Shown: positions 9,101-50,205 of the stretch, one piece after another
Numbering within the stretch: the first letter of the stretch is position 1
Layout: each line of letters starts with the position of its first letter
DNA from: Eubacteriales bacterium
GTDB taxonomy: Bacteria > Bacillota > Clostridia > Oscillospirales > CAG-272
Assembly (NCBI GenBank): GCA_045655765.1
Contig: JAZOQA010000022.1
Coordinates: 4,573 to 68,572 of the forward strand
Direction: 5' to 3'
Length of the DNA stretch: 64,000 nucleotides
Notes under the pieces: model-generated
What the model was told of the DNA's origin: nothing
The model's database searches: none
Seen by the model: the letters and a program-made list of their open reading frames with translations, nothing else
Translations under genes and position numbers: made by a program

Positions 9101-12100
9101 TTCTCTCTCTTCTATATCCCGATGCAAAGGTGGAGATACAGGGCTTCGAGGAAACTCGTATCGCCAATGGTAGCGTGGACTTGGCTATTACCAATGTTCC
9201 GTTTGTTACAGGACTTCGTGTGAACGACACCACAGGCGATAAAGACCTATCCAAGAAATTCCACAACATACACGACTTCTGCATAGCAAAGAATGTGCGC
9301 AAACTGCGTGAGGGCGGTTTGGGCATCTTCATCACGTCCAATGGTACGCTTGATAACAGTAAGAAACTACGTGATTGGATTGTGAATGAGGGCGGCGCAG
9401 ACTTTGTGGGTGCTTTCCGTATGCACAACAAGACTTTCGGCGGCACAGGCGTAACCTCTGACATCATTGTTATCCGCAAGCGTGTGAATGGCAAGAAGTC
9501 AGCCAATGCCATTGACGTAAGCACCGTTACAGGCGAGCGTATGGCTGAGTACGATACAGGCGAAACACGCAAGGTAAAGGGACAGATTGTTCCTGTCGTG
9601 AAGCAGCTTTCAATGGACTACAATCAGTATTTCGTTGAGCACCCCGAGAATATGGCAGGTGAAATGCACTTTGCCTTTGAGAAAGGCGACACGTTCCGTC
9701 CGACAAGTAAAGGCTTGTATCCTAAACAGGATAAGAAGCAGGAACAGATGTTGGCAGAGTTCGTGCAGTCGTTCACTGCTGAGGAGTTTGGCGAAAAGGC
9801 TACTGATGAGATTGAAGTTATTGATGCAATGCCAGGCAAGAAGATTGGCGAGGTGTTTGTCAGTGATGGAAAGTTATACATCAATGCCATCGGTGCTGCT
9901 CAACCTCTTGAAGTCAATGCCAACAAGGTAAAGGGACACACAAAGGTTGAGTGCTTTGAGGCGTACAGCGCAATCAAGGAAGCCCTTGCCGCTGTTCTCG
10001 AATACCAAATCACCCACGAGGATGACAAGGGATTGAAGCCTCTGCTTGCTAAACTCAACAAGGCTTATGATGACTTTGTATCGACCTATGGACATTTCAA
10101 CAAGAATACTGCTATTGCGTTCCTCCGCAACGATGTGGACTATGCAAATGTGTTCGCTCTTGAAAAGTTTGAGGAGTCAGCCGATGCAAAGGGTAACAAG
10201 GTGCAGAAGTTCGGCAAGACCGATGTATTCAGCAAGCGTGTTATTGAAAAGGAGGCGGAGCCAATGCCTACCAATGTCAAGGACGGTATTGTAGCAAGTA
10301 TCTTCAAGTTTGGTCGTGTAGATATTCCATACATCGCAGAACAGCTCGGAAAGAGTGAAGCCGAAGTAAAGGCAGAAATCATCGAGAGCGGTTACGGCTT
10401 TGAAGACCCTGCCACAAGACAGGTGGAAGTGTCGTATCAGTATTTGAGTGGCAATGTGCGTGAGAAACTCCGTCAAGCACAGGAGAACAACGAGAACGGC
10501 GAATTTGACCGCAACATCAAGGCATTGCAGGAAGTTATGCCAATGACAATCCCTGCCCACTTGATAGACTTTACTCTGGGTAGTTCTTGGATAGAGCCTA
10601 AATTGTACGAGGAGTATGTGAAAGAACGTACCGATGTAGGTGTGCAATTTACTGCCGTAGGCGGTACTTGGTTTATGAACGAGCCATATTACACAGCCTA
10701 TGAGAAAAACCGTGCTATGGGTGTAACGAGTGAAATGCTTGGACGTACCGTAATGGGACACACTCTCATTGAGGCGGCTATCCAAAACAAGAGCATCACC
10801 GTTTCCACCGTTAAAAAGAATTGGGACGGCTCTACTGAAACCATTACCGACAAGGAGGCTACACAGGCTTGTAGTGCGAAGATTGACGAGATACGTCAGG
10901 ACTTCAAGGAATGGGCAAGACAGAAGATGCAGAGCGATGCGGAAATGTCGGAACGTATGGAGCGTGTGTATAATGACACATTCAACAACTATGTGCCGAT
11001 GAGTATTCCCGATGAGTTTGTCCCCGAATACTTCGGTGGTGCATCGCACAAGTTCAAGATGCGTTCACACCAAGGCAGAGCGATTGTAAGAGGTACTATG
11101 CAACCGCTGTTGCTTGCTCACGAGGTAGGTACAGGTAAAACCTTTACTCTTATCTCTACTGCAATGGAGATGCGCCGTTTGGGTACTGCACGCAAACCTA
11201 TGATAGTCGTTCAGAACGCAACCGTAGGACAGTTCGTAGCGAGTGCAAAGGAACTCTACCCCAACGCCAAGATACTGACACTTGAAGAGGCAGACCGCAT
11301 TGCAGACGGCAGAAAGAACTTCTATGCCAAAATCAAGTACAACGATTGGGATATGATTGTTGTGCCACAATCAACCTTTGAGTTTATTCCCGACAGCGAG
11401 GAAAGGCAAATGGCATTTGTGCAGGAGAAGATTGAAGAAAAGATGCTTGTCCTTGAACAGATGAAAGAAGCCGACCCCGATGGCAAGAGTATGATTACCC
11501 GACAGGCTGAACGTGAAATCGCCTTGTTGGAGGAAGAACTTGCAGGATTGAGCGGTGAGACAGGCAAGAAACGCACTGCCAACGATGAAAAGAAACGTGC
11601 CGTTGCTTTGCAGAATGCAGAGGTAAAGGCAATGGAAATGCTCGACCGCAGAACTGATGATGTTGAGAACTTCGATGATATGGGTATTGATGCCCTGCTC
11701 ATAGATGAGGCTCACGAATACAAACACCTTGGATTTGCCACCGCTATGCAGCGTGGTGTTAAGGGTGTGGACCCGTCATACAGCAAGAAGTCGCAGGGCG
11801 TATTCTTGAAGACACAGGCAGTGTTGGAGAAGAACAACGGACGAAACGTAATCTTCGCCACAGGTACACCAATCAGCAACACAGCAGCCGAGATATGGAC
11901 GTTTATGCGTTACCTTATGCCTGCTGACACTATGAAAGAGTACGGCATCTACTACTTTGACGACTTTGTGCGCAACTTCGGTAACATTCAACAGATGTTG
12001 GAATTTACCACAAGTGGCAAGTTCAAGGAGAACAACCGCTTTGCCGGGTATGTCAATCTGCCCGAGTTGGTACGTATATGGTCGGGCGTATCAGATACCG

Positions 12101-26140: not shown

Positions 26141-26779
26141 ATGACAGTCTATCCACTTGATAAGATTGCGGAAGATGTTCGCATAGCACTTGACCAAAAT
26201 ATGTCGAGTGATGCGCTGACAGAAATCGGCGATGTGGACACCCTTGCCCTCAATGACATCATCAAGTCGAAGATTGTTGAGGCTGTCAAGCGCATACACA
26301 GCGAAGCACCCCCTCACTTACTTGACGGAGGTCATAATTTCGGCGATGCCGTGTATTGGATGGAACACGAAAGCGGTTGGGTACTCTTGCCGGAGGACTT
26401 TATGCGCTTTGTGGTGTTCGAGATGGACGATTGGGCGAGACCTGTTTTCACCTGTTCCAACACGGACGACCCCGAATATGAGAAGCAACATTCACGCTTC
26501 AAAGGCATACGAGGCACGGCGCAACGCCCTGTCTGTTTCGTTTCGATACGTCCAGAGGGACGTGTGTTGGAGTTCTATTCCTGCAAGAGCGAGGAGGCAA
26601 TGGTAAGCCGTGCCGTATATCTTCCCTATCCAAAAGTGGACGAATACGGTGCTATCGAGATTTGTCAGCGATGTTACGATGCAGTGGTTTACACCACAGC
26701 AGCATTAGTGTTAATCACGTTCGGCGACACGGAGCGAAGCAACGTGTTGAACGAATTGGCTAAATCAACTTTAATATGA
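26141..26779 (+). CDS. Hypothetical structural protein (head-tail adaptor candidate)
   Basis: A 212-aa ORF between the head genes and the fibre gene. Its stop overlaps the fibre ATG (ATGA). Positional call only. Confidence 0.45.
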   Translation: MTVYPLDKIAEDVRIALDQNMSSDALTEIGDVDTLALNDIIKSKIVEAVKRIHSEAPPHLLDGGHNFGDAVYWMEHESGWVLLPEDFMRFVVFEMDDWARPVFTCSNTDDPEYEKQHSRFKGIRGTAQRPVCFVSIRPEGRVLEFYSCKSEEAMVSRAVYLPYPKVDEYGAIEICQRCYDAVVYTTAALVLITFGDTERSNVLNELAKSTLI

Positions 26780-29700
26780 GTTCAATAAAGACGACACAGA
26801 TTGACGGTGATGTTTCCGTTGGTCGCAACGTGGCTGTTGGTGGCAGAGTAACCGTTCAAGGCAGTTCCCAATTCAAGGGAAGTGTAAAGATTGAGGGTTG
26901 GCTTGATGCCAAGAACATCAAAGGAGCGAACAAAGGTATCTTCACTTCGATAGAGAAATTGAAAGCCGCCTATCCATTGCCTCACGATGGTTGGTGGGCT
27001 ATTGTCGGAAAAACTCTCCCCGGGCCCATTTATGTGGGTGATGGTGGCGAATGGGTAGCCACAGGCGAAGAGGGAGGAAATCCGACCGTTGATAGCGAGC
27101 AGTACAACGAAGCCGTAGCCGAGTTGCAGGGAGACATTGCCCTGTTGGAGCAAGATGTGAAAGACATCGAAGCCAAAGACAAGGCGCAGGATACTCAACT
27201 GACGACTATCGGCGGACAGGTAAACAACCTGCAAACTAAATTAGATACCGTAGAGAGCACAGCCAATGAAGCCAAGACAAAGGCAAATTCGGTGGGTGCT
27301 GACCTTGCATCATTCAAAGCGACAAAGGGAGCGGCAAACGGACTTGCCCCATTGGGCGATGATGCCAAAATCCCTGCAACCTATTTGCCCGGTTTTGTCG
27401 ATGATGTGATTGAGTTTGCAGAGGCAGTAGAAAAAATTGTAGTGCAACAAACCGAACTTGGCTCTGTTTCGGAATATACACGTGTTGTTTATAACAAGGA
27501 CAGCAACGTGTTCGTAATTGCTCGCATCGTTGAAATAGAAAATGAGAGTGGAGAAATAGAGAACGAGATTTACTATTATCCAAAGTGGGAAGATAGTGAA
27601 ATTTGGGGACTACAATCCTATAATGGCGTTATTCCACAGGCAGGTAAGGTTTATGTTGATAAGTCGAGAAACATCACTTATCGTTGGAGCGGCAGCACCC
27701 TTGTTGCCATTGGCTCAGACCTTGCTTTGGGCTATACCGATAGTACGGCATTTCCCGGTAGTGACGGTAAGAAGTTGCAGGACGATATGCAGACTGCACA
27801 GACGAACATCAGTACTCTCAACAAAAACCTTACAGGCGCAACCGCACACATAATTGCCCGAAGCGTAGTTAATGTAAACCAACTGTTCGGTTTGACAGGC
27901 AGAGAAATCACGTTTGCCGTAGCCCTTGACCGCATCGCCAACTATGAGGCAGCAGCCACCATTCAGATACCGGGCGTTGTACTTACGTTCCTTACAGAAA
28001 ATGGTTGGCAGTCGAAGCAGTGGACAAATACCGCTGATTGGACTACTGAAAGCAATTGGACTGACTTCGGTGCAAACGGAGAGAGCATTGGCAACACAAT
28101 CAACGTGAATGCCCTTTGTGATAACATCGAGTATTCGTTGAGTACCGCCATTCAAGCCGTGCAGGACTTGGAGAAAGAAAGCGGACTATCCTACTTCAAG
28201 AGCGGTGTTGTGCTGACATTCAAGACCGCAGACACCGACCTCAACGGCGCACCTGTATGGCTTGCCTATCAGTTCACACGAGAGGTAGCCGACATAAACC
28301 CTGCCGATGAAAAGCCTTGGGTTGCTTTCGGTGGCGGAGGTAGCGGCAATGTGGAAACCGCAGATGTACCCGAGAAAGCCGGCAAGCAAGCCCTTTCAAC
28401 AGGCGGTGCATACGAAATGCAGGAGAAAGCCATCGGCGGTTTTGACGAAGAGAGCGATGAGGACTACATCTATTACAAGGCTGTAAACCTCAACGGCGCA
28501 CAACTTCCCGATGTGCAAATCAAGATACCGAAGAATACAGGAGGTGGCGGTTCGAGCGAGGACAGCACCCTGTCTATCTACTTTGAAGAAGCTGCACCTA
28601 CCGTAGCATACGGCTCTGACATCATCGTAAATGTTGCCTTGCGTAGCGTAAGTTACCCGGACGGCAACGAGGTATTGGGCGTTATCCGTAGCCTCGCTAT
28701 CGTTGATGCAAGTACAGGTTTGACACTGTTCAGCGAGAGTATGAACGAGGTCGGTTCGGCAAGTGCCACCGATTACAAGTTCGCCCTTGACTTCACAGAG
28801 TATTTCAGCAGTGCTGCATCAAAGAGTTTCTTTGTACAGGCAACCGATGCGGACGGAAACAGCAAGAAGAAAGCCATTACCATTGTGGCGGTCGATGTTA
28901 CCGTTGAGCAGCCTATGGCATTGAACTACACAAGTAGCACGGCATTGACCGTAGGCGGCTCTGCAAAGAGTATCGGTCAGTTCTATAAGTTCCCTAACAA
29001 CTCATCGTCTATCCTTGCCGTTGTGGAAATGCTCTATAACGGAGAATGGAAGAAGTTGGGCGAGGCGACCGTAAGCGACAGTTACACCAAGAGTATTTCG
29101 GTAAATCCGAGCAATGTGTTTGGCGGTGGCGAACGTCTCTTGCACGGTGCATACCCTGTGCGCATTTATGGTATTGAAACCAAGTCGAGAGTAAGGGGTA
29201 ACACCATCTATTCGGCTATTATGTGCGTTGATGCAGACAACACGACACCGATTGTTGCTATCCGCTTCAACGACACCAATAACGGCTCGTTGCGCCTGTA
29301 TGACAACTTGACCGTTGAGGTTGCCGCATACACTTCAGGCAAGACCGAGACACCTATTAGGGTGTATTATGGCGATGAACTTGTAACCTCCGTTGAGGCT
29401 ATGATTGCCGAGACTATCAAGGTAAACAAGCAGATACAGGGCTACCGTACTGACGGAACACAGCAAATCATCGTACACGCAGAGAGTGGTCTTTCAATAA
29501 CCAATCCAATAGAGGTAACTGTATCGGGCAGTGCCATTGGTGCCGTAATCAAAGACGGTGCTTTGTTCGGCTTCGACTTTGCAAGCCGTAGCAACAGCGA
29601 GAGCGACCATACCATTAAGAACAATGGCGTGGAAATGGTTGTGAAAGGCTCGAACTATTCAAGCAACGGTTTCGTGGACTACCTCGGTGAGCGTTGTTTG

Positions 29701-32700
29701 CGTATTGCAGAGAATGTAACGGCAGAGATTGTCGGCTATAACCCATACGGCAATTCAGCCACAGAACGCACGACAGGTAATGCCATTCAGTTTGCCTTTG
29801 CCACAAAGAACATCAAGGAGGCAAGTGCCAAACTCATTGAGTGCTACGACCCCGATAGCGGTGTAGGCTTCTATTTGTGCGGTAATAAGGCTGCTATCTA
29901 CTGCAAGACAGGACAGCCTACATTGGTAGAGCGTTCGTTCAAGTGTGCCGAGAAACACACAATGGCGGTAGTCGTTGAGCCGTCCACCATCTATGTAACA
30001 CGTGGTGGCAGCAACTACTCGTGCATCAAACTGTACTTGGACGGTGAGGAGGTGGGCTGTATCGGTTACATCAGCAATAGCGGTGCTATCCTCAACAGCA
30101 AGACAATCACATTCAATGGAACTGAGGGCGATTTGTATCTGTACTATTTCCTTGCCTACGACAGCCATTATGAGTGGGCACAGGCATTTCAGAACTACTT
30201 GTGCAAATTGACCGATACCCCTGCTATGATTGCGGAGTACGAGAAAGAGGATGTGCTTGACACGCAGAACCGCCCGACACTTGAAAAACTGAAAGAGAAA
30301 GGTATCCCGTACTATGTCGTAGTACAGGAGCAATCCACCTTTGACACGTTTGACGGCGATATTGACACAAGCAAGAAGTTTGAGTGTACGCTGTACTACT
30401 ACCACCCGACAATGCCTTGGCGCAGCTTTAAGGCAGTAAAAGTTCAGTGGCGCAGACAGGGTACGACTTCGGCAAAACGTCCTATCAAGAATGACCGCTT
30501 CTACTTGCGCAAGAATGAGGGCTGGGAAGTAACACCTATCTACCCGGACTACACCAACGAGGATGCGTTGATTTCATACGAGTTGATGAAACTCGGCTAT
30601 GTGCGTGTAGGCGAAAACTCCATTCCTGTAAGCATCATCACCGTAAAGGTGGACTATTCGGACAGCTCGGGTGTAAACGACTGCGGTGTTTGTGACTTGA
30701 TGAACGCTACTTATCGTGCGCTCGGCAGCAACTATCTGACCCCTGCACAGCGAGCCTTTGACGGCACTTGGGAGAAGAAAGGAGTAAGGCTGACAGGCTT
30801 ACAGATGAACCACTCAACCGCCAACCACCCGATTGCGGCATTCCGTTCGACAATGGAGAGCCTTACCGATGCTTGGTTTCACGCAAAGGGCAATTGGAAA
30901 GAGGATAAGAACGAACAGTTGGCACTTGGTTTCCTTGATACACCCGGCTACAACTTAGGCTGTGTGAACTATGGCGATTTCATTGAGTATTTCGGTAAGG
31001 AGGGCGAAACACTTGACCAAATCGAAATGCGCTTCAAGAATGACAGCACCACCGACAAGAGCCAACTTTACCTGTTGTCGCTCTACTGTGGCGAGAACTA
31101 CCGCTTTATGGCATACGAGAGCGGAGCGTGGACGGCACAGAAAGGCGAAATGAAGCAGGTAAACGGCAAGTGGCAGATAACAGGTAAGGTGCTCAACCCT
31201 GTGAGCGGTTACGAGTTGTTGAGTTATGACGGCTTGAATTGGTGGCAGGGAGTTGGCAGCATTGCCGATATGATGGAGCCGACCACCGCCGAAGCATCTT
31301 GGGTTACCAAACTGAAACTCGGACAGCCTACATACCCGATGTGGACACGCTACTTCGAGTGTATGATTGACGATGACCAACTGCAAGAGGACTTGGCAAT
31401 GGGTCGCAAAGTTCCATACGACCTGTATCAGATGTTGGTGTTCTGTAATAGTTGCGACTATTCAAAGGCTGAACTTGCCGACACTTGGCAGAACATTTGG
31501 AAAACGCAGATGTGGAAGTATGCCAATCCGTACTCGCTTGTGGCGTACTACCTCTTTACTGACTACCTCGCAGCCGTTGACCAACAGGCGAAGAATATGC
31601 AGCCTATGTGGTTCTTGGAGGACGGATGTAGTGTGAAAGACGGCGTATATAGCGGTGCGAACGGTATGAACGCACGCCGTATGTACTGTAACAAGGTGTA
31701 TGACTGTGATACCTGTAACGGAAAGGACAATGACGGTGGACAGACCATTGACCCCGAAGTTGACCCGGGCGACTTGACAAGCAGCGCATACGCAGGACGT
31801 GGCTCTGTGCTTTGGAACAACATCAGAGGACAGCAGACAATGGAGGTTGACCAAAACGGCAACACCATTACCCTGTTGGCTATCGCTGACACTATGCGTT
31901 CATTGCCGGACACACTCGGCATTGGTGCAGGACCATTCTCGCCAAAGGGCGCATTGCACTACTTTGTTGATGAGCGTCTGAAGAAGTGGCCAAAGGTTGT
32001 TTCAAGTTTTGACGGAGAGCGTAAGTACATCAAGTACACAGGTTATAGCGACATCTATTTCTACGCTCTGCAAGGTCTTGGATTGACCTCTCTTCCTGCG
32101 TTCATTGAACAGCGTTGGCGCATCAGAGACGGTTACTACCGTTGTGGCGACTTCAAGGCTGAAAGCGGTTATATCGGCGGTCGTATTGGTGCAAAGGACG
32201 GTGCAGTTATCCGTTTCAAAGCAGCCAAGACAGGTTATTTCGGTATCGGTAACGATAGCGGTAACATTACCGAGGGTATCTACCTGCAAGCAGGCGAAGA
32301 GGGCGTGTTCAGCAACTTCCAACACGGTGAGAACATTATGCTCTACATATACCAGGCAGACCGTATGAGTATGCTTGACTTGAGCGAAGTGAGCATCGAC
32401 CCACAGTTCGGTAACACCTTGTCGAAAATGGCACTCTTGCAGGAGTTGTATTTGGGTAGCGAGACACACGGAGATTGGACAATGTCGCCCGGTAACACAG
32501 GCTATATGACCAATCTTGATTTGGGCGATATGCCGTTCTTGCGTATTCTTGATGTGCGCAATACCGAGGTGCAGACGATGAACGCATCGAAGTGTCCTCG
32601 CTTGGTATCGGTATATGCAGAAAGCACCTCGCTTTCTACCATTACCCTTGCCGAGACATCGCCTATCAAGGAACTGACACTGCCCAACACGATGACCGAA

Positions 32701-34707
32701 ATTGTGTTGAACAACCTGCCAAGCCTTACCTATCCGGGCGGTTTGAAGATTGCAGGTATGGGCAAGGTTGCAAAGGTATTTGTGAACAACTGTTCTCACG
32801 TTGATACAATGAGCCTGTTGGAACAGATTACCACCGCAAGTGCGTTGAAAACCGTTCGTATTCCTAACGTGAACGTGTCGGCAAGCGTTGATATGCTCCG
32901 TGCTGTCAAGGATAGCGGTGCAATCGGTCTTGATGCCAACGGCAATGCCTACGATGAGAGCGGACAGTGTAGCGGTATCACAGGACGATGGATATTGACC
33001 GAACTTATTGAGGAAAGCGAAGTAGCAGCTTTGCAGGACTACTTCAAGGAGTTGAGCATCTACAACGCCCAATTCTCGCAGGTTATCTTTAATGACGAGG
33101 AAGAGGATTGCTACAACATCACGAATGTGGATAACAAGACAGGTTACCTGTATGGCAACAAGTACGAGAAGAGCGGACACTTTGCACGTATAGAGGCAGA
33201 GAGCCACGCCTACCGTGCCATCTATGATGCAAGTGCAGGAGCGATGAAATGCCGTCAGTTGAGCGATGCCGACTACAATTATTTTGCAGACGGTACGCAA
33301 CTTGACTTGAGCGATACATCGGGCGAAGGTTTTGATATTATGAAGCGTTTGAAGCCTTATTGGTATAAGGGTGTGAACGACTACAAAAATCAGCAGAAGC
33401 ACTTCTTTGCCTCATCGCAAGAGAATGAGCCTATGAGTACCGCCAACAAGATAACCCGAAAGAAACTGAGCGAAATTCTGTTGCAGGAACTATCCTCTGT
33501 GTTCGTGTCGGGCAACAGTGTGGGCAGTCCGTTGGTGATTACCGAGAACGCCAACCACAACACCTATTCGATGGATGTTGAGGGTATGAAGCAGGTACGC
33601 TTCCCCGGTGTCAATTCGAGTGCGGTCGGTGGTGCTTTCGTGGATGAAAACGACAATGTGGTATCGTTGTTCAATATGTACGTTACACATTCTCTGTTTG
33701 ACTTCACACCGGGTGAATACATCTTCTGTGATGTTCCGCAGGGTGCTAAACGCTTTGTGTTCTCTTCACAGACAGGATTGGACGATATTGAGACAATCGC
33801 CGTAGATAGCAATGCCATTGAAGCTATTGAGCCTGATTGGGTGCATACTCCCGACCGTCTCATCGGTGTATATGGTGCATCTGTGGACGGACTTATGCGC
33901 TTGCGCTCTATCAGCGGTGTAAAATCGCAGGTAGGTACAGGAGCCGCCACAAATACCGAATGGACTTACGATGAGAACGGAAAGGTAACCAATGTTACTG
34001 CGCCCAATGTAAAGGGCTTTTCTTGCAAGGACTTTATGAACCTTGCTATGTTCCGCAGGAACGGCTATCAAGCCATTGACTACGAAATGAGCAAGGACGT
34101 TGCCAACCTTGTTATGGCATTGATTGGTACACGTGATATTCAAGCATACGCAGGCTATGGTTGCAGTGCAGGTTATACGACAGGTGCGAACTCGCTGAAC
34201 ACCTATGGTAATCAGACACGTAAGTATTCGGGTAGCAATATCGGTAACTTGATATTCGGTATTCAGAACTTCGTAGGCTGTAACTATGAGTGGACTGACA
34301 ATGTAGCGGTGAACGTGGTATCGTTCAAGTCGTTCTTGAAGAACAAAGGTGTTGCCATTACTGCCGATGTGGTTGATAGAGTTGTACATATCTATGACCC
34401 TGCAACCGATACTGAGCGTACAGTTAAAATGTGCGATGGTACAGGTTATTGCATCGGGCGTGTCCGCTTTGGTCGTTACTGTGGCTATTTTGCATCAAGA
34501 CTTACAAATGACAATTCCGCTTGGAATAAGTGGTACACTGACGCACAATACTATACCGCAGATAAAGCCCGTGTGGTTGGTCGTGGCGGTAACAATGCGG
34601 TTGCGGTCGTCGGTCTCGTCTGTTCGGTCGCGAATAACGCGTCTTCGCACTCGAACACGAACTACGGCTCTCGGCTCGCCTTCATCGGAAAAATCGAAAT
34701 TGAGTAA
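26776..34707 (+). CDS. Giant tail fibre / receptor-binding protein (2,643 aa); DGR target 1
   Basis: It has the fibre-type motif GAANGLAPLGDDAKIPATYLP (about 27330-27400), an N-terminal coiled coil, leucine-rich repeats (about 32370-32880), and a C-terminal C-type-lectin-like variable segment VVGRGGNNAVAVVGLVCSVANNASSHSNTNYGSRLAF that contains VR1. Confidence 0.85.
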   Translation: MSSIKTTQIDGDVSVGRNVAVGGRVTVQGSSQFKGSVKIEGWLDAKNIKGANKGIFTSIEKLKAAYPLPHDGWWAIVGKTLPGPIYVGDGGEWVATGEEGGNPTVDSEQYNEAVAELQGDIALLEQDVKDIEAKDKAQDTQLTTIGGQVNNLQTKLDTVESTANEAKTKANSVGADLASFKATKGAANGLAPLGDDAKIPATYLPGFVDDVIEFAEAVEKIVVQQTELGSVSEYTRVVYNKDSNVFVIARIVEIENESGEIENEIYYYPKWEDSEIWGLQSYNGVIPQAGKVYVDKSRNITYRWSGSTLVAIGSDLALGYTDSTAFPGSDGKKLQDDMQTAQTNISTLNKNLTGATAHIIARSVVNVNQLFGLTGREITFAVALDRIANYEAAATIQIPGVVLTFLTENGWQSKQWTNTADWTTESNWTDFGANGESIGNTINVNALCDNIEYSLSTAIQAVQDLEKESGLSYFKSGVVLTFKTADTDLNGAPVWLAYQFTREVADINPADEKPWVAFGGGGSGNVETADVPEKAGKQALSTGGAYEMQEKAIGGFDEESDEDYIYYKAVNLNGAQLPDVQIKIPKNTGGGGSSEDSTLSIYFEEAAPTVAYGSDIIVNVALRSVSYPDGNEVLGVIRSLAIVDASTGLTLFSESMNEVGSASATDYKFALDFTEYFSSAASKSFFVQATDADGNSKKKAITIVAVDVTVEQPMALNYTSSTALTVGGSAKSIGQFYKFPNNSSSILAVVEMLYNGEWKKLGEATVSDSYTKSISVNPSNVFGGGERLLHGAYPVRIYGIETKSRVRGNTIYSAIMCVDADNTTPIVAIRFNDTNNGSLRLYDNLTVEVAAYTSGKTETPIRVYYGDELVTSVEAMIAETIKVNKQIQGYRTDGTQQIIVHAESGLSITNPIEVTVSGSAIGAVIKDGALFGFDFASRSNSESDHTIKNNGVEMVVKGSNYSSNGFVDYLGERCLRIAENVTAEIVGYNPYGNSATERTTGNAIQFAFATKNIKEASAKLIECYDPDSGVGFYLCGNKAAIYCKTGQPTLVERSFKCAEKHTMAVVVEPSTIYVTRGGSNYSCIKLYLDGEEVGCIGYISNSGAILNSKTITFNGTEGDLYLYYFLAYDSHYEWAQAFQNYLCKLTDTPAMIAEYEKEDVLDTQNRPTLEKLKEKGIPYYVVVQEQSTFDTFDGDIDTSKKFECTLYYYHPTMPWRSFKAVKVQWRRQGTTSAKRPIKNDRFYLRKNEGWEVTPIYPDYTNEDALISYELMKLGYVRVGENSIPVSIITVKVDYSDSSGVNDCGVCDLMNATYRALGSNYLTPAQRAFDGTWEKKGVRLTGLQMNHSTANHPIAAFRSTMESLTDAWFHAKGNWKEDKNEQLALGFLDTPGYNLGCVNYGDFIEYFGKEGETLDQIEMRFKNDSTTDKSQLYLLSLYCGENYRFMAYESGAWTAQKGEMKQVNGKWQITGKVLNPVSGYELLSYDGLNWWQGVGSIADMMEPTTAEASWVTKLKLGQPTYPMWTRYFECMIDDDQLQEDLAMGRKVPYDLYQMLVFCNSCDYSKAELADTWQNIWKTQMWKYANPYSLVAYYLFTDYLAAVDQQAKNMQPMWFLEDGCSVKDGVYSGANGMNARRMYCNKVYDCDTCNGKDNDGGQTIDPEVDPGDLTSSAYAGRGSVLWNNIRGQQTMEVDQNGNTITLLAIADTMRSLPDTLGIGAGPFSPKGALHYFVDERLKKWPKVVSSFDGERKYIKYTGYSDIYFYALQGLGLTSLPAFIEQRWRIRDGYYRCGDFKAESGYIGGRIGAKDGAVIRFKAAKTGYFGIGNDSGNITEGIYLQAGEEGVFSNFQHGENIMLYIYQADRMSMLDLSEVSIDPQFGNTLSKMALLQELYLGSETHGDWTMSPGNTGYMTNLDLGDMPFLRILDVRNTEVQTMNASKCPRLVSVYAESTSLSTITLAETSPIKELTLPNTMTEIVLNNLPSLTYPGGLKIAGMGKVAKVFVNNCSHVDTMSLLEQITTASALKTVRIPNVNVSASVDMLRAVKDSGAIGLDANGNAYDESGQCSGITGRWILTELIEESEVAALQDYFKELSIYNAQFSQVIFNDEEEDCYNITNVDNKTGYLYGNKYEKSGHFARIEAESHAYRAIYDASAGAMKCRQLSDADYNYFADGTQLDLSDTSGEGFDIMKRLKPYWYKGVNDYKNQQKHFFASSQENEPMSTANKITRKKLSEILLQELSSVFVSGNSVGSPLVITENANHNTYSMDVEGMKQVRFPGVNSSAVGGAFVDENDNVVSLFNMYVTHSLFDFTPGEYIFCDVPQGAKRFVFSSQTGLDDIETIAVDSNAIEAIEPDWVHTPDRLIGVYGASVDGLMRLRSISGVKSQVGTGAATNTEWTYDENGKVTNVTAPNVKGFSCKDFMNLAMFRRNGYQAIDYEMSKDVANLVMALIGTRDIQAYAGYGCSAGYTTGANSLNTYGNQTRKYSGSNIGNLIFGIQNFVGCNYEWTDNVAVNVVSFKSFLKNKGVAITADVVDRVVHIYDPATDTERTVKMCDGTGYCIGRVRFGRYCGYFASRLTNDNSAWNKWYTDAQYYTADKARVVGRGGNNAVAVVGLVCSVANNASSHSNTNYGSRLAFIGKIEIE
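34569..34677 (+). repeat. DGR variable repeat VR1
   Basis: A 109-bp gap-free alignment to the TR. There are 12 mismatches, all at TR adenines. Confidence 0.9.
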
Positions 34708-34773: not shown

Positions 34774-34866
34774 TTGCCTGTTACCGCCCGACAAAGGGCG
34801 GCGAGAAAAGAAATGAAAGTTTAACGGCAGTCGCAAGACTGCAAAAAAGGTAGAGTGTCTCCATAG

Positions 34867-34975
34867 CCGTGTGGTTGGTCGTGGCGGTAACAATGCGAAT
34901 GCGAACAACGGTCTCGTCTATTCGAACGCGAATAACGCATCTTCGAACTCGAACACGAACAACGGCTCTCGGCTC
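34867..34975 (+). repeat. DGR template repeat (TR)
   Basis: An AAC/AAT-rich 109-bp non-coding copy of VR1 and VR2 with 27 adenines, located 170 nt upstream of the RT gene. It may extend to 34985. Confidence 0.9.
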
Positions 34976-35145
34976 ACAATCAAAGCAAATAAACGTGGGT
35001 GTTGTTCACCACGCTTATATATAATCGTTCTAACTGCACGGCTACGTGTAGCCACCGCAGGGAGCGAGAGACACGAGCCTCGGCAACCCTCTCCGCAAGG
35101 AAGAAAGCCGGAACATAACTGAGTGCCTTGAAGGCATAGAACAAT

Positions 35146-36498
35146 ATGGAAAAGACAATATTTCCCCTCAACAATCTGATGAGCGAGATTGCTACGAGGG
35201 AGAATGTAGAAGAAGCCTTTGACTACGTTGTCAGCCACCTTGAATGTAAGGAACAGCGTGAGAAATACTACCCTCAACGAGAGAAGATGTGTAGCAGGCT
35301 GCTGAAAGACTTGGCAAACGGGACATTCCGTATTACCGAGTTCAACGAAATGGAGGTCAAAGATGGTCCGAAAGTAAGGCGAGTGCAAGCCCCACGAGTG
35401 TATGGGCGTGTCGGTTGCCACGCCATTATGGTAATTGTTGAGAAATACACTTACCCTACGCTCATCAAGAACACGGCGGCAAGTATTCCCGGACGTGGTA
35501 TGCATTGGCTACATCACATTGTTGAAGCCGATGTAAAGAGCGTGCCGGAACTGACACCGTTCTACTATCAGTGCGATATACACCACTACTACGATAGTAT
35601 TGAGCAGTGGAGAATGAAAGCATTGATAAGAGAATACATCAGCGACCCTGTGCTGTTGCCGATACTTGACAACTTTATCGAACTATTGCCCGAGGGTTTA
35701 TCAAAGGGACTACGTTCCTCGCAATGCTTCGCCAACCTGTTCCTGTCGAGGTTAGACCACCTTATGATAACGGAGGTGGCATCATACGAGTTGGAGCAGA
35801 AAGACGGCTCTTTTGAGGTGCGCTATCTGTATTACCGCTATTGCGATGACATTGTAATGTTGGCAAGCAGTAAAAAGGAACTATGGCGATTGAGGGACAT
35901 TCTTGTAGCCCACGTTGAAAGCATCGGATTGAGAGTGAAGCCCAACGAGGCTGTGCGCCCTCTTGAAGAATGCGGACTTGACTACCTCGGCTATGTGGAC
36001 TATCGCACACATTCGCTGATACGAAAGCGAACGAAACAGAAAGCAGCCCGACACTTGGCCAAGGTGAAATCGAGAAAGCGCAGGCAATCCATTATCGGCT
36101 CATTCAAAGGAATGGCGTGCCACGCTGATTGCAAACATTTGTATTATAAACTAACAGGAAAGAAAATGAAAAAGTTTGGAGAATTGGGTGTAACCTACAC
36201 CCCGAAAGACGGAAAGAAAAGATTTCCGGGTAACACTGTAAGACTTGCAGCGATACAGAACATACCCATAGAGATACACGACTATCAGACGGATATGAAA
36301 ACACCCCACGGCGATGGTCGCTATCTTGTTTCGTTCAAAGACAAGCAGACCGAACAATGGGGCAAGTTCTTTACCGCCTCGGAGGAAATGAAGAATATCC
36401 TTGACCAGATAAGCGACATTGAGGACGGTTTCCCATTTGAGACCAAAATCACGAGTGAGCGTTTTGACGGTAACAAAGTGAAGTACAGTTTCACATAG
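35146..36498 (+). CDS. DGR reverse transcriptase with a C-terminal extension
   Basis: A 450-aa ORF with RT motifs, including the DGR-typical ...GLRSSQCFANLFL... and YRYCDDIVML (CDD at 35842-35850). About 105-110 aa extend beyond the thumb region. Confidence 0.9.
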   Translation: MEKTIFPLNNLMSEIATRENVEEAFDYVVSHLECKEQREKYYPQREKMCSRLLKDLANGTFRITEFNEMEVKDGPKVRRVQAPRVYGRVGCHAIMVIVEKYTYPTLIKNTAASIPGRGMHWLHHIVEADVKSVPELTPFYYQCDIHHYYDSIEQWRMKALIREYISDPVLLPILDNFIELLPEGLSKGLRSSQCFANLFLSRLDHLMITEVASYELEQKDGSFEVRYLYYRYCDDIVMLASSKKELWRLRDILVAHVESIGLRVKPNEAVRPLEECGLDYLGYVDYRTHSLIRKRTKQKAARHLAKVKSRKRRQSIIGSFKGMACHADCKHLYYKLTGKKMKKFGELGVTYTPKDGKKRFPGNTVRLAAIQNIPIEIHDYQTDMKTPHGDGRYLVSFKDKQTEQWGKFFTASEEMKNILDQISDIEDGFPFETKITSERFDGNKVKYSFT

Positions 36499-36572: not shown

Positions 36573-37049
36573 ATGGAAAAAAGATACGGAGCCACCGAGA
36601 GGCACGACCGCCTAATGAAAATCGGTCGCAATAAATGGGAACTGATATACGGTTACGGCACAGATGGCGTGTCGGGTTGGACTTATAGGGAGCGTTTCAC
36701 ACGTAAGCCTACACAGGATGAGATAAAGGAGATTATCATCGCCCAAATCAACCGCAATGTGGAGGAAAAGATATTGTGCGGCTTGGTGTGGAAAGATATG
36801 CCTATATGGCTATCCACAGAAAACCAATTTAATTACAAGGCAGCTTATGACTTGGCTGTGCAGACAGGCGGACAATCGTTGCCTGTGAAGTTCAAGTTCG
36901 GCACAGACGAGCAGCCTGTTTACCACACATTCACTACGCTTGATGATTTGCAGGAGTTCTATATGACATCGTTGGCGTTCGTTCAGCAGGTGCTTGATGA
37001 GGGTTGGCAGGAAAAGGACAACCTCGATTTGAGTGTATTTAACCAATAA
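36573..37049 (+). CDS. Hypothetical protein (DUF4376-like; weak)
   Basis: A 158-aa ORF after the RT gene. It is W/Y-rich with a mixed-fold look (...KILCGLVWKDMPIWLSTENQFNYKAAYDLA...). It does not look like a helical Avd. Confidence 0.45.
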   Translation: MEKRYGATERHDRLMKIGRNKWELIYGYGTDGVSGWTYRERFTRKPTQDEIKEIIIAQINRNVEEKILCGLVWKDMPIWLSTENQFNYKAAYDLAVQTGGQSLPVKFKFGTDEQPVYHTFTTLDDLQEFYMTSLAFVQQVLDEGWQEKDNLDLSVFNQ

Positions 37050-40691: not shown

Positions 40692-43550
40692 CTAACGTAC
40701 TTGGTTTGTCATACGTGGCTCGTACACTACGGTGCATCCGTAGAGGCTTTCGGCTTTATCGAACTTGCAGACAAGAGCAAGACGGAACGCCTTGTATGGT
40801 GTGCCTCTGAAACCTCGCATAATCTTATCTACGCTGCTCCATACGGTATGCCAATGTATGAGGTCGTTGGAGCCATACAGCACCTGCTGAACGTGCGTAG
40901 AACGGAACATACCACGCTGAATAATGGTGTTGATGGTCTTGAACGTATTTGGGTCGTCAATCTTAAACGGTCGTGTGATGATGAGTGCTGTGATGTTCTC
41001 TGCCACAGGCTTTGAGAAATCCACGAGTTTTGCACCGTCAGCCATTGCAAGGGCTTCGGGATAGGAATTGACGTTATCCACGATATCGGACCGCATCATA
41101 CCCCACGTTTGAGACTTCAACGAATAGACGTAGGCATATCGGACCGCAGGGTTATATACGATGAGGTGCTGATTGGTGTAGTCGTACACCATCCGGCAAC
41201 CTTGCAGGAACTCATTAAACGGCAACAGGCTGATGTCGTCAAGCGTTATCTGTTCGCTTTCATCGGCTTTGCCATTGAAGATGTTGATTAGTTTGTCGCA
41301 CTTCGGCAGGTCGGCAATACTGAACATTTCCTCTGTGTTGAGGCGGTCGGAGATACACTGTACTGTTGAGCCGCTGATGTGCATAATGCCCCTGTCTGTG
41401 GCAAACAGCACGGCACTATCTATCTGTGTGATGCTATCGGGATTGATAACTACATCACGTGTGATAGGTTGCTTTGCGGAGTACGTTCCTGTATTGGAAA
41501 CCTCCAACGCCCAAACTCCTTCCGTAGTGAATGCATAGAGTGGGAACTGTCCGAACTGACCCTCTGACAATGCTTTTGCGGCAGCACAAATGCCGAGAAT
41601 GTTTCCTGTTCCTACGGTGTTGATACCGAGTACCGGGAAATAGAACGGATTGTTTACCTCGGAAGTGTAGATTTTGTTTGATATTTCGATTGGGAAGTTG
41701 CTCGCTTCCTCTGTCGAATACATCGGGTATGATATAGTTGGTAACGATGTGAAGTTCTTTTCTCTCACCAACTCATAATCAAGTATAGCATATGCCCCAT
41801 TCAAAAACTCGTGTGGTTTCAAATCAACCGCATAGCAAGCAGACGAATAGTTGTATATAACCATTTTGTAGGCATTAGGATTTGGATAAAACATATAGCA
41901 CCCCCACGAATGTTTACTCATAGATGTACTTCCATCACCGTGAGTCAATTCACCACTATTAAATAGGGCAAGATAACACATATCGTAATAATCCGTACTA
42001 CACTCTACTCGATAATCCGTACCATTCTCTTTGATATATACCGCAATGGAATAACTATCTGATGAGAACGGTGATACTGTTACGCCTAATGTCGTTCCGC
42101 TTAATTGCCAACTATAACGTCCGTTGCAATATGCGAACATTGATTGGGCAAGAAACCCGATAAATGGTTTTCTCCTCAATCCTGCCAAGTTTATACGACC
42201 ATTGTAAACAAATGAATAGTCTGCATATAATTGGTCGCGCGACAAATAATCGTCCGTCATTACCTCACGAGTAACTAATGATTGCAGGTATTCGTTCTCT
42301 ACAACAATATCCTTGCGTGTATTGTCAGCAAGAGCATCGGAAATTTCAATAGAACACAACTTATAGAATGTGGACGTATTCTGTAGTGTTTCGTTAACCT
42401 TTCCTTCTGTAAACTCTGGCAGATGGAATGTTGTGGACGGATATGTTCTATCCGATGAATAATACATCGCATAGATGCGTGAATACTCCCACTCGCAATA
42501 ATAGTTGAGGAACTCCTTTGAAGTAAAATTACCGAGCAATTTATCTTCCGCTTTTGAAGATGTTGTAGTAGTCGGGTTGTCTGCATAAAGGCGACCGATA
42601 AACTTTGTTGTGTAGTTATCAGTGTCGGCAAATGATGTAATCTTTCCGTTTTGGTCGTAAGTGTATATCGGCTTCGACACAAAGACCTCGATACTCTTTA
42701 CAATGTCTGCCCAATCTTCAAGGTAGTAAGAGTCTGTATTGCGTATTATGCGATAATCCAAAGAGGAAGCGACCAACATAATATCGCATTCAGCAGACGA
42801 ATAACTGCCCTTGCCGGATGCACGTTTCCAAAACACAATAGGCGCAGCCTTTGTGCTTGGGTTCATAAGAATAGGCGCAGAGTGATATATTAGCGACCCA
42901 TCATATAATTTCAACGCATAACGAACAAAGAAAGGGAAGCAGAAACGCCCTCTATTCACAGTCTCCTGTGCAACGAATTTGTTTACCTTGGCCATTATTT
43001 GGTTGGTAATTGTTGTTTTGTTATCTTCCGACAACTCATTAAACAATGCACCCTCCGAAATTCCGTTAAAAGATATGGTAAAGGTGCTTTTGCTACTATC
43101 AGAAAGAGAAAACAAACGAGGACGACCAACAAGACCAAAAGAAACTTCTACATCAGGGATATGATTACCCAATTCGTAATACTTGTCATCTTTCCAAAGG
43201 AAATAGTATATACCATTCTTGGTAAATGCGAGCAACGTGTTTCCTATCGCATTGAAATGCGATGTCTCATACAGAGAACCAATGGTTATTCTACTCTTTG
43301 TTTTGCTGTCAATTGAATAAGCCTTTCGGGTGTTGTCCGAATATACGATATAATGCTCGAAAGAAGCCGTTTTGTGAATAAACTCGACACTCTCTCCGCT
43401 TTCGAGTTGCAGAACTAATGACGGTGGCAGTACAGGTTTCATTGTTCCGTCCTCCTGTATCAACCCCATTGTGGTAGCCAAATCGCCATCGGCACATTCA
43501 TAGTCCGAGGGGTTGGCTGAATATCCATTGTATTTAATCTCCTTAATCAT
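40692..43550 (-). CDS. Large hypothetical protein (952 aa), possibly a virion or tail component
   Basis: A long ORF with beta-rich, Y/N/S/T-rich composition. It is the last gene of the minus-strand operon. No motif recognised. The composition changes within the gene (see findings). Confidence 0.6.
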   Translation of the reverse strand: MIKEIKYNGYSANPSDYECADGDLATTMGLIQEDGTMKPVLPPSLVLQLESGESVEFIHKTASFEHYIVYSDNTRKAYSIDSKTKSRITIGSLYETSHFNAIGNTLLAFTKNGIYYFLWKDDKYYELGNHIPDVEVSFGLVGRPRLFSLSDSSKSTFTISFNGISEGALFNELSEDNKTTITNQIMAKVNKFVAQETVNRGRFCFPFFVRYALKLYDGSLIYHSAPILMNPSTKAAPIVFWKRASGKGSYSSAECDIMLVASSLDYRIIRNTDSYYLEDWADIVKSIEVFVSKPIYTYDQNGKITSFADTDNYTTKFIGRLYADNPTTTTSSKAEDKLLGNFTSKEFLNYYCEWEYSRIYAMYYSSDRTYPSTTFHLPEFTEGKVNETLQNTSTFYKLCSIEISDALADNTRKDIVVENEYLQSLVTREVMTDDYLSRDQLYADYSFVYNGRINLAGLRRKPFIGFLAQSMFAYCNGRYSWQLSGTTLGVTVSPFSSDSYSIAVYIKENGTDYRVECSTDYYDMCYLALFNSGELTHGDGSTSMSKHSWGCYMFYPNPNAYKMVIYNYSSACYAVDLKPHEFLNGAYAILDYELVREKNFTSLPTISYPMYSTEEASNFPIEISNKIYTSEVNNPFYFPVLGINTVGTGNILGICAAAKALSEGQFGQFPLYAFTTEGVWALEVSNTGTYSAKQPITRDVVINPDSITQIDSAVLFATDRGIMHISGSTVQCISDRLNTEEMFSIADLPKCDKLINIFNGKADESEQITLDDISLLPFNEFLQGCRMVYDYTNQHLIVYNPAVRYAYVYSLKSQTWGMMRSDIVDNVNSYPEALAMADGAKLVDFSKPVAENITALIITRPFKIDDPNTFKTINTIIQRGMFRSTHVQQVLYGSNDLIHWHTVWSSVDKIMRGFRGTPYKAFRLALVCKFDKAESLYGCTVVYEPRMTNQVR

Positions 43551-48412: not shown

Positions 48413-48820
48413 TTATTTTAACAATTCGGGGTTATCGTAAACATTCCCAATGACCTTTTTCGAGCCTGTCCAACGGCTATCATCAAGACCGCATACACCT
48501 ACAAAATCGTTTTCAATATCGCCATTGAGAGCTGCCATAAACCGACCTTGCTTTTCATTATAGAATATCAAGTGCTTGATGTTGGGATTATGGCAACCTA
48601 TGACATCGCCCTCGTAAATATCGTTGCCGTTTTTATCAGAAAGTCCTGTAAACTCGCCTATTGTGTTAGGGTCTATCTTACACCTCGTTCCAACGTCTGT
48701 ATGGATATGGGGAAAAGCACTTCTGATATGTAGGTCACCAAATACCCATTCTCCGATATTGTGCCCCTCAACACTCTTTGCTCTGAATTTAATCGTTCTC
48801 ATCGTTACCTCCTTTCTCAT
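48413..48820 (-). CDS. YopX-family protein
   Basis: IKFRAKSVEGHNIGEWVFGDL...GEFTGLSDKNGNDIYEGDVI... is the typical YopX N-terminal pattern. Confidence 0.6.
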   Translation of the reverse strand: MRKEVTMRTIKFRAKSVEGHNIGEWVFGDLHIRSAFPHIHTDVGTRCKIDPNTIGEFTGLSDKNGNDIYEGDVIGCHNPNIKHLIFYNEKQGRFMAALNGDIENDFVGVCGLDDSRWTGSKKVIGNVYDNPELLK

Positions 48821-49334
48821 TTAACCTTTTCGCTTCTTCCTCGTATGGGCAATCCTGTACGCACTCATCGCACATTGAACAGCATACGATATGTTTTCCA
48901 CAAGACGGGCATTTCTGCACGCTTAATTGTGCTTTCAATACGACTTCATTATCACAATGTGGACACATTTCAAAAGTGACCTCATCATTATCCTCGTGAA
49001 CATTACCTATTACTTCGTAATCCTCGCTCACCAACAATCCTTGAAAACCGCTATAATCAACACAGAAGTGTACATCTTTATATTTTACAGGCGCACGTTT
49101 GGTGTACTTGGATTTCACGATGTCTCCCTCATATATCTCCTTGCCATTCTTGTCAAGTCGTCCGGTAAATTGTCCAACCGTTTCAAGTTTGACAGCACAC
49201 TCGCCATAACAAATTTTGCCGTTATGTTCGTAAGCATACACAATGCTTGGCATATAACCTATTCGCTGAATGAGGTCTCCATATATCCACTCGCCTGTTT
49301 CTATATCCTTACCTCTAAACTTAATCTTTCTCAT
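48789..49334 (-). CDS. YopX-family protein fused to a C-terminal zinc ribbon
   Basis: MRKIKFRGKDIETGEWIYGDL...GQFTGRLDKNGKEIYEGDIV, followed by CPHCDNE...CPSCGKHIVCCSMCDECVQDC. Confidence 0.6.
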   Translation of the reverse strand: MRKIKFRGKDIETGEWIYGDLIQRIGYMPSIVYAYEHNGKICYGECAVKLETVGQFTGRLDKNGKEIYEGDIVKSKYTKRAPVKYKDVHFCVDYSGFQGLLVSEDYEVIGNVHEDNDEVTFEMCPHCDNEVVLKAQLSVQKCPSCGKHIVCCSMCDECVQDCPYEEEAKRLNEKGGNDEND

Positions 49335-49353
49335 TGCTTACAGTTTGTTTGTT

Positions 49354-49393
49354 AGAAAAATGGCAGTGCGGAGGCAGCAGCCCCCACACTGCC
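49354..49393 (-). terminator. Intrinsic terminator after DGR target 2
   Basis: On the minus strand, GGCAGTGTGGGGG-ctgctg-CCTCCGCACTGCC forms a 13-bp stem with two G-T pairs, followed by ATTTTTC. Confidence 0.55.
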
Positions 49394-49399
49394 CCTGCA

Positions 49400-50041
49400 T
49401 TATCCCTGCTTTCCTACTTCCTTTGGTTTGAAACAGAAGTCGGCATAAATCTCGGCGAACTGCCTACCTGCGTAGGCTGCGAGTTTTTCGCTTTTGAAGG
49501 CGAGCCGAGCGCCGTAGCTCGTGTGCGGGTACGAAGATGCGTAATACGCGTGCGAATAGACGAGACCGCTGTACGCATACGCATAGTTACCGCCACGACC
49601 AACCACACGGCTTTTATCCTCAGCAGATAGTTTGTCGTACTGCTCTTTGGTGATTAGGTCGTACCAAAAATACCAACGGCGTTCGCCCTTTGTGAATTGA
49701 GGTTCCCAACCCTCGTTGAGAGCTGCGGTGATGATGCGGAGTTGGAGGTATGCCACCAAATCATAGTCGTTCATATCGTGTTGGTGGATATGCGACACAT
49801 AGCCGTCATAGGCTTTTACGAATGGGTGGTCAGAGCCGAGTTCACGACAAGCATCGGCAAATGTCTTGATGCGCTCTGTTACGTCCTGTGGCTTCTCATC
49901 TACGAGGGTGAGTACACCATCAACCCATTTTGCAACTTTCCCTACGGGGATTTCGATTTCTACTTTCTTGGTCTTGTTTTCCATACTGTTGTTTGTTTTA
50001 ATTGGTTTGAAAATCCTTTTGATAATGATTAAAGTGTTCAT
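49400..50041 (-). CDS. DGR target 2: small protein with a C-type-lectin-like variable C-terminus
   Basis: 213 aa, ending ...SRVVGRGGNYAYAYSGLVYSHAYYASSYPHTSYGARLAFKSEK... and containing VR2. The ATG at 50041 overlaps the stop of the upstream 55-aa ORF (ATGA). Confidence 0.8.
   Translation of the reverse strand: MNTLIIIKRIFKPIKTNNSMENKTKKVEIEIPVGKVAKWVDGVLTLVDEKPQDVTERIKTFADACRELGSDHPFVKAYDGYVSHIHQHDMNDYDLVAYLQLRIITAALNEGWEPQFTKGERRWYFWYDLITKEQYDKLSAEDKSRVVGRGGNYAYAYSGLVYSHAYYASSYPHTSYGARLAFKSEKLAAYAGRQFAEIYADFCFKPKEVGKQG
49502..49610 (-). repeat. DGR variable repeat VR2 (remote, opposite strand)
   Basis: The reverse complement aligns gap-free to TR 34867-34975. There are 13 mismatches: 11 at TR adenines and 2 at TR thymines. 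Confidence 0.85.
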
Positions 50042-50205
50042 TGTTTGTTGGTTTTATGTTCAAAGTGAGGACACGACTTTAATTTCTCCTTGTATGCAGG
50101 AGGTATCCACCATAATGGTTCATCGGGTGGGTCGGGCAGATAGCGTCTGCACTCCTGGCGAATTGGGCAAGTAACGCCCGAACAGTAACTGTAATCTTTG
50201 TTCAT
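50038..50205 (-). CDS. Small Cys-rich protein (55 aa; below the ORF-track cutoff)
   Basis: MNKDYSYCSGVTCPIRQECRRYLPDPPDEPLWWIPPAYKEKLKSCPHFEHK... It fills the gap between the DnaC-like gene and target 2 exactly. Confidence 0.45.
   Translation of the reverse strand: MNKDYSYCSGVTCPIRQECRRYLPDPPDEPLWWIPPAYKEKLKSCPHFEHKTNKQ

Follow-up and report, generated by a model that had tools for sequence, protein, structure and literature searches.

The question raised by this locus is whether a small gene lying among the early genes of a phage is a working target of that phage's DGR. Almost every phage DGR that is understood diversifies a receptor-binding tail protein. In BPP-1 (Mtd/TR/Brt/Avd), adenine-specific mutagenesis proceeds from TR to VR at the 3′ end of the target ORF, the VR carries a VR-specific 3′ element (IMH) that differs from the TR, and a GC-rich hairpin lies downstream of the VR. 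In the 64,000-nt stretch of DNA analysed here (the window), a sequence-only reading had proposed a second, remote DGR target, on the opposite strand within an early/replication operon. The repeat copies, the ORF, and the neighbouring genes all bore this out. The comparisons described below indicate that the remote repeat, VR2, is very probably a working trans target of the phage's single DGR. The window phage is a Bacteroides-type gut phage in which one DGR serves both a giant tail-region protein and a small early-gene protein.

DGR components in the window

The features of the locus are listed in Table 1. The closest sequenced phages were the Bacteroides phages BS-TP4 and BKO1-TP3, with genomes of approximately 64–65 kb and approximately 73% nucleotide identity to the window; the giant protein is syntenic with gp14 of the former and gp44 of the latter. 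The TR lies 298 nt downstream of VR1 and 171 nt upstream of the RT gene, which encodes a reverse transcriptase of the DGR clade. The RT-3 RNA motif is placed exactly in the interval from the TR to the RT start codon, and it is probably a structured spacer that forms part of the DGR RNA. In BS-TP4 (gp15–gp16; L001, 9081–9741) the giant target gene and the RT gene are separated by an inserted RelE toxin/XRE antitoxin pair; the matching position in the window holds the TR region alone.

Table 1. Features of the DGR and of the small target gene (coordinates are window positions)
Feature	Position	Strand	Remarks
Primary DGR target, tail-region giant protein	26776–34707	+	2643 aa; C-terminus phrog_14959-like
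VR1, cis variable repeat	34569–34677	+	C-terminus of the giant protein; 12 mismatches to TR, all at adenines
TR	34867–34975	+	27 adenines: 12 AAY codons plus TAT, GCA, and ACG
RT-3 RNA motif (Rfam RF03068)	35023–35136	+	61.5 bits (gathering score 40.5), E 5.5e-12
DGR reverse transcriptase (RT)	35146–36498	+	450 aa; KGLRSSQ motif ([I/L]GxxxSQ type) and YCDD box; phrog_1423, E 1.8e-85
DUF4376 ORF (phrog_19239)	36573–37049	+	Immediately 3′ of RT; RT-adjacent in related phages too
Intrinsic terminator hairpin	49352–49393	−	14-bp stem, 4-nt loop, T-run
Small DGR target gene	49400–50041	−	213 aa; alternative ATG at 49984 gives 194 aa; phrog_11581 member
VR-specific 3′ boundary, IMH-like	49495–49501	−	GCCTTCA, common to VR1 and VR2; TR has ACAATCA
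VR2, remote variable repeat	49502–49610	−	Codons R145–L180 of the 213-aa ORF; 13 mismatches to TR, 11 at adenines
Four-Cys ORF	50038–50205	−	55 aa; overlaps by its stop codon the first ATG of the target gene

No Avd-like match was recognised. The DUF4376 ORF directly follows the RT gene in BS-TP4, BKO1-TP3, and BT-TP2, as it does in the window; it is a possible candidate for a DGR accessory protein in the place of Avd.

Repeat copies and their 3′ boundary

When the 25-nt 5′ end of the repeat was used as a query, exactly three copies were found in the window, at 34569 (+), 34867 (+), and 49610 (−), against 0.00 matches expected in shuffled sequence. Repeat detection paired 34865–34984 with 49493–49612 at 87% complementarity. 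The reverse complement of 49502–49610 had been claimed as a third copy of the 109-nt DGR repeat, and direct comparison confirmed that it is one, 14.5 kb from the TR and on the other strand. Position-by-position comparison also reproduced the counts given earlier. VR2 differs from the TR overwhelmingly at adenines (11 of 13 mismatches), and its remaining two mismatches fall on thymines: T34949 is replaced by C (plus-strand position 49528) and T34967 by G (plus-strand position 49510). VR1 is identical to the TR at both of these thymines, and 12/12 of its own mismatches are at adenines. A second TR as the source of the non-adenine sites in VR2 was ruled out, the window having three copies of the repeat only.

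Beyond the sequence CGGCTC the VRs and the TR part (Table 1), and the boundary was invariant in every VR1 and VR2 copy retrieved. Boundary pairs of the same kind were found in two other phages: GCCTTCA (VR) vs. GCAAACA (TR) in BT-TP2, and TTGC (VR1 and VR2) vs. ATAC (TR) in LoVEphage. By analogy with the IMH of BPP-1, GCCTTCA is likely to be the element by which the VRs act as recipients and the TR as donor. VR2 thus has the sequence signature of a DGR target, in that it occupies residues 145–180 of 213, near the 3′ end of its ORF, and is followed by a VR-specific element.

In terms of established DGR biology, the TR, the RT-3 RNA, and the RT gene would be co-transcribed. The RT would copy the TR into cDNA, misincorporating opposite adenines, and this cDNA would replace VR1, 298 nt upstream of the TR, and VR2, 14.5 kb off on the other strand. 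The difference between the VR and TR 3′ boundaries is of the kind that would make the transfer one-way.

Variation of VR2 among relatives

The sequence-only reading had called for a comparison of VR2 across related phages, and had suggested that the repeat might be drifting in a rarely homed target. A search with the target protein gave 4584 database matches, the best 120 of which were 75–93% identical to it and came mostly from singleton clusters. The 112-aa "members" of the 90% cluster proved to be an unrelated protein and were set aside. An exact look-up of the window's own small target gene matched no contig. The scan of genome contigs for relatives yielded two loci, and the IMG/VR scans yielded few independent strains, many of the contigs being the same strain.

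At the protein level, variation in 121 homologues was concentrated at the 14 TR codons in which a change of adenine alters the residue (152, 153, 155, 157, 158, 162, 164, 166, 167, 171, and 173–176). Column entropy at these positions was 1.3–3.25 bits, with up to 13 residue types; in the GCA codon (residue 168) a change of adenine is silent. Elsewhere in the conserved core, most columns were below approximately 0.5 bit, with a few lineage polymorphisms of approximately 1 bit located mainly near both ends. The 121 homologues carried 116 distinct VR strings. One relative, P0404, was identical to the window protein in its scaffold outside the VR and differed from it at 15 VR residues. In nucleotides this pair (the P0404 gene is that of relative L029) had five differences in approximately 660 nt outside the VR, all synonymous, and 24 in the 109-nt VR.

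The nucleotide sequences of 11 distinct VR2 copies from related contigs gave the same picture: all 27 of the 27 adenine sites varied, vs. 8 of the 82 non-adenine sites. VR2 is therefore hypervariable, not invariant, across relatives. Of the eight non-adenine positions that varied, three (34885, 34918, and 34922) are lineage polymorphisms. Two TR types occur in the relatives, GTCTATTCG and GTTTATGCG, and each VR2 copy carries one or the other; the VR2 variants at 34918 and 34922 match these two types. In the one contig for which all three repeats were available (L009 plus L015), TR, VR1, and VR2 were all of type B. Because VR2 carries the TR-type variants and agrees with the resident TR, non-adenine information of the TR must have been copied into VR2. 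At the level of the population, these sequences point to ongoing mutagenic retrohoming into VR2.

Homologous recombination or gene conversion between paralogous modules, instead of retrohoming, might also keep VR2, VR1, and TR similar. The three copies share long identical stretches able to support recombination, and the gene resides in a modular cassette whose homology breaks just past the terminator. Gene conversion, however, would not confine the differences to TR adenines (27/27 vs. 8/82), would not keep all of the adenines in the TR while both VRs vary, and would not leave the 3′ boundary systematically different between the VRs and the TR. We therefore regard this explanation as extremely improbable.

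Among the relatives, one VR2 allele (P0018; contigs L025, L026, and L027) was identical on at least 24 contigs, including chromosomal contigs of more than 200 kb. Diversification would therefore be episodic and a lysogen can be stable; in other words, VR2 can stay fixed in one lysogen lineage across samples.

This fixed allele is one of two observations that would suit an inactive relic, that is, an old duplicate of a VR-bearing module that is no longer homed and is drifting. The other is the pair of non-adenine mismatches, which are located near the 3′ end of VR2 and which any homing event would overwrite. The variation across relatives is nevertheless both hypervariable and restricted to adenines, and it includes a pair with identical scaffolds and 15 VR differences. 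VR2 follows the TR types of its relatives and matches the resident TR where all three repeats can be read, its IMH-like boundary is intact, and both non-adenine changes are singletons (see below). Disruption of the ORF in close relatives had been named as an outcome that would speak against a functional target; the ORF is intact, and its substitutions outside the VR relative to L029 are all synonymous. We consider a relic very unlikely. The suggestion of drift is not supported, in view of the 116 distinct VR strings among the 121 homologues, the 15 VR changes of P0404, and the tracking of lineage TRs, and a working trans target is the reading that we retain.

The two non-adenine mismatches

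The two thymine-site mismatches had been put forward as a notable signal. Both change the first codon position, converting Ser172 to Pro and Ser178 to Ala. Pro172 and Ala178 each occurred once in the 121 homologues and are private to the window genome. Rare replacements were more frequent at the non-adenine codons of the VR than in the scaffold (2.18 vs. 1.08 per column; Mann-Whitney p 9e-5). At least one rare non-adenine VR change was present in 19/121 homologues, and at least two in 9/121. Because comparable rare changes are carried by 19 of the 121 homologues, the two changes in the window are unremarkable. On this comparison they are private point changes and provide no evidence of a decaying target. 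Possible sources are mutation after homing, a rare RT error, or a consensus error in a mixed population.

Start, terminator, and operon of the small target gene

The target gene had been described as start-coupled to the 55-aa Cys ORF. The ATG of the target gene does overlap the TGA of this ORF (ATGA), and the overlap was kept in eight related loci. Most homologues, however, were called by gene callers from Met20 (49984), giving a protein of 194 aa, and in the 19-codon leader that precedes Met20 the changes between lineages were non-synonymous only. From these sequences the Met20 start and the 213-aa start are equally possible. If Met20 is the start, the coupling to the 55-aa ORF matters less.

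At the other end of the gene, the claim of a strong terminator closing the transcription unit was upheld: a stem-loop at 49393–49362 is followed by a T-run, with a ΔG of −32.8 kcal/mol and a z of −4.4. Homology with the relative L029 stops just past this terminator, at approximately 49335. Downstream of the VR2 gene the window contains YopX genes and a C5 methylase. The YopX-domain genes are two in tandem (48413–49334, minus strand), directly downstream of the terminator, and at their position L029 and a second relative, L030, have an 82-aa ORF and a methyltransferase. Because of this exchange, the boundary of the cassette appears to be a recombination hot spot.

Upstream of the target gene, on the minus strand, the window has a DnaC-like loader and a replication initiator, and then the 55-aa ORF; our scan of the upstream operon genes in the window covered the initiator and the loader. 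In a syntenic relative (L025), the operon of the target gene comprises RecT, SNF2 helicase, HU, VRR-NUC, replication initiator, and DnaC-like loader genes. The small target gene is absent from BS-TP4 and BKO1-TP3. The gene occupies a cargo slot that in BS-TP4, after the loader and the small Cys ORF, is filled by a DNA methyltransferase. Because the 55-aa Cys ORF is present there (gp44) without the target gene, it belongs to the replication module. The minus-strand operon in the window ends in a 952-aa ORF (40692–43550, minus strand) with a full-length match to phrog_32516; it also matched a virion structural family weakly, and the "early" operon may therefore not be purely non-structural.

Family, fold, and composition of the small protein

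The only full-length match of the small protein was phrog_11581, a family of unknown function (E 1e-49 over residues 48–211). The family is very large, with 1330 clusters at 50% identity for E ≤ 1e-3 and 574 for E ≤ 1e-10, and most of its members are stand-alone proteins of 160–260 aa. Homology between the small and giant proteins spans the VR and approximately 30 residues upstream of it, at the C-terminus of the giant protein.

The small protein had been expected to have a lectin fold. No Pfam family, including any lectin family, matched the small protein or 96 family members, and NCBIfam and PADLOC gave no match for the small protein. A family-profile search of the PDB returned nothing relevant, and Foldseek found no analogue in the PDB (best E-value 4.1). 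Against BFVD, Foldseek matched uncharacterised phage proteins only, including crAss-like ones. An AlphaFold (AF2) model built on 48 close homologues had a pLDDT of 60.6, the alignment being too shallow, and was superseded by a model built on a diverse alignment (pLDDT 79.8, pTM 0.70). The latter predicts a β-hairpin (residues 35–48), helices (61–108), and a C-terminal helix pair (185–203), with no Ig domain; its confidence is low exactly in the VR (residues 147–178). Because the Pfam, PDB, Foldseek, NCBIfam, and PADLOC searches gave no match, the lectin fold is not confirmed here. The RVVGRGG...GSRLAF motif presumably resembles the VRs of C-lec domains. A signal peptide or lipobox, which had been suggested as a thing to look for, was sought in the sequence and neither was found; Cys first occurs at residue 65, and the N-terminus lacks any long hydrophobic stretch.

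About 14 TR-templated codons are hypervariable and rich in Tyr, and the remaining scaffold is conserved. Tyr made up 27% of residues at AAY codons overall in the 121 homologues and occupied 7 of the 12 in the window. At these codons A-to-T changes were frequent at position 1 and A was kept at position 2; nucleotide usage at the two positions was strongly asymmetric. Relative to independence, the VR2 repertoire was depleted in Asp and enriched in Gly. A repertoire of this kind suggests selection on the product, for a binding surface. The 12 AAY codons together with TAT and ACG would allow approximately 2 × 10^15 protein variants.

Function of the small protein

Small target genes of this type were found in early, non-structural modules of three phage backbones. 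One possibility is a place in the virion for the small protein, for example as an accessory adhesin or a receptor-binding subunit whose gene lies apart from the structural module, with diversification alongside the giant tail protein serving to alter host range. Receptor binding is the role of characterised phage DGR targets (PMC10743442), VR2 and the approximately 30 residues upstream of it share homology with the giant tail-region protein at its C-terminus, the minus-strand operon that includes the gene ends in the 952-aa protein with its weak virion match, and a virion protein would not need a signal peptide. This reading is opposed by the early or regulatory setting of the gene in all three backbones, next to a DnaC-like loader in the window, methyltransferase and PAPS-reductase genes in LoVEphage, and a Cro-like HTH gene in BT-TP2. 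The two closest cultured relatives, BS-TP4 and BKO1-TP3, also produce virions without the gene, and the gene ends at its own terminator. We think a virion role unlikely.

Judging from gene context, we tentatively favor a diversifiable intracellular binder, made early in infection, that might act in phage-host conflict, host takeover, or counter-defence, and we hold this with less than even confidence. A more specific version, which we consider rather doubtful, is that phrog_11581 proteins are early-expressed, antibody-like intracellular binders, diversified by DGRs, whose Tyr-rich surface the phage could retarget at polymorphic host (defence) proteins so as to neutralise or hijack them. The scaffold of such a binder would be one without a solved structural analogue, and some phages have two paralogues; a reading of this kind was outlined by Benler et al. 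(2021). A second, early, non-structural target points to an additional, intracellular use of targeted hypermutation by phages, possibly in countering host defences. The family concerned comprises hundreds of clusters at 50% identity and has no recognisable fold.

In one related contig (L008; IMGVR_UViG_3300012983_000556) two paralogous small VR genes, at 5329–5970 and 9099–9653, lie approximately 3.8 kb apart. The same hairpin follows each, and one VR has the signature of the type-A TR and the other that of type B. By sequence, this is either a three-target DGR or a DGR in which one copy is a relic or recombinant.

Comparison with known systems

The window DGR is like that of BPP-1 in its adenine-specific mutagenesis, its VR-specific 3′ element, and the presence of a hairpin 3′ of the VR. 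The hairpin was not adopted as a BPP-1-like cruciform recognition element; it is 108 nt from the VR and resembles an ordinary terminator. BPP-1 has Avd and a single target adjoining the RT, a tail-fibre tip protein whose structure has been solved as a C-type lectin fold. The window phage, in contrast, has a remote, non-structural target in addition to its primary one, and no Avd could be recognised.

Tentaclins are second DGR targets in some gut phages; their VR is in an N-terminal C-lec domain, and Ig-like domains come after it (PMC10743442). The small protein is likewise encoded by the second target gene of a phage DGR. Membership in the Tentaclins was rejected, since the VR of the small protein is C-terminal and its AF2 model has a helical N-terminal part and no Ig domain.

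Homologues of the small protein were found in seven phage records, all of them LoVEphage-type or BT-TP2-type, and at least five of the seven were among the matches to the TR/RT region. In BT-TP2 (45 kb; PQ571279) a 52%-identical homologue directly follows a Cro-like HTH gene, and its VR matches the TR of that phage. We located this gene at 8838–9225 of L021 plus 1–450 of L031; it carries no annotation, since the linear GenBank record has terminally redundant ends and the gene runs across them. Only targets of roughly 2000 aa were given in the paper on BS-TP4 and BT-TP2.

LoVEphage (MW660583) encodes a 194-aa homologue (QVQ57199.1; 36% identity over residues 57–202), whose gene has methyltransferase, PAPS-reductase, and radical-SAM genes as neighbours; 15.3 kb separate its inverted VR2 from the TR and RT. 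Thus the window phage, LoVEphage, and BT-TP2 each have a VR in agreement with the resident TR and a small target gene placed outside the structural module. Together with its full-length homology to the family, this places the small protein with phrog_11581 and the Quimbyvirus-type small targets. We took Quimbyvirus as the LoVEphage lineage, because a later paper (PMC12629997) cites Benler et al. for LoVEphage.

The second DGR target of Quimbyvirus was described as distal to the structural module, on the opposite strand, and near methyltransferases, a nuclease, and a tRNA ligase; Benler et al. (2021) proposed a role for it in phage-host conflict and reported a C-lec domain in the LoVEphage homologue by HHpred (Microbiome; PMC8008677). 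A 2025 paper in Nature reported four prophage species in which a second VR is distal to the RT and close to counter-defence genes; it gave no function (PMC12629997). The earlier description of the window's target as unusual was therefore overstated: a homologous gene is the published second target of Quimbyvirus/LoVEphage, and four more prophage species have been added since.

The likeness to Quimbyvirus/LoVEphage (ORF 80/84) extends to a homologous protein of approximately 194 aa with a VR matching the resident TR, a non-structural location on the opposite strand, approximately 15 kb away from the RT cassette (in LoVEphage within a module with methyltransferases), a 3′ boundary common to VR1 and VR2 and absent from the TR, and a hairpin after the gene. 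The two differ in backbone (approximately 64 kb and BS-TP4-like in the window, 71 kb in Quimbyvirus/LoVEphage) and in neighbours, replication genes and YopX lying beside the target gene in the window. The RT of the window phage is a single ORF, whereas that of Quimbyvirus was described as three frameshifted ORFs, and the primary target is a 2643-aa protein in the one and a "tail collar fiber" protein in the other. The window thus adds a third backbone for the small target family, as well as population evidence of VR2 homing from the resident TR. Although the backbone is different, the arrangement was already published in 2021 and 2025, and its remaining value therefore lies in the function of the small protein.
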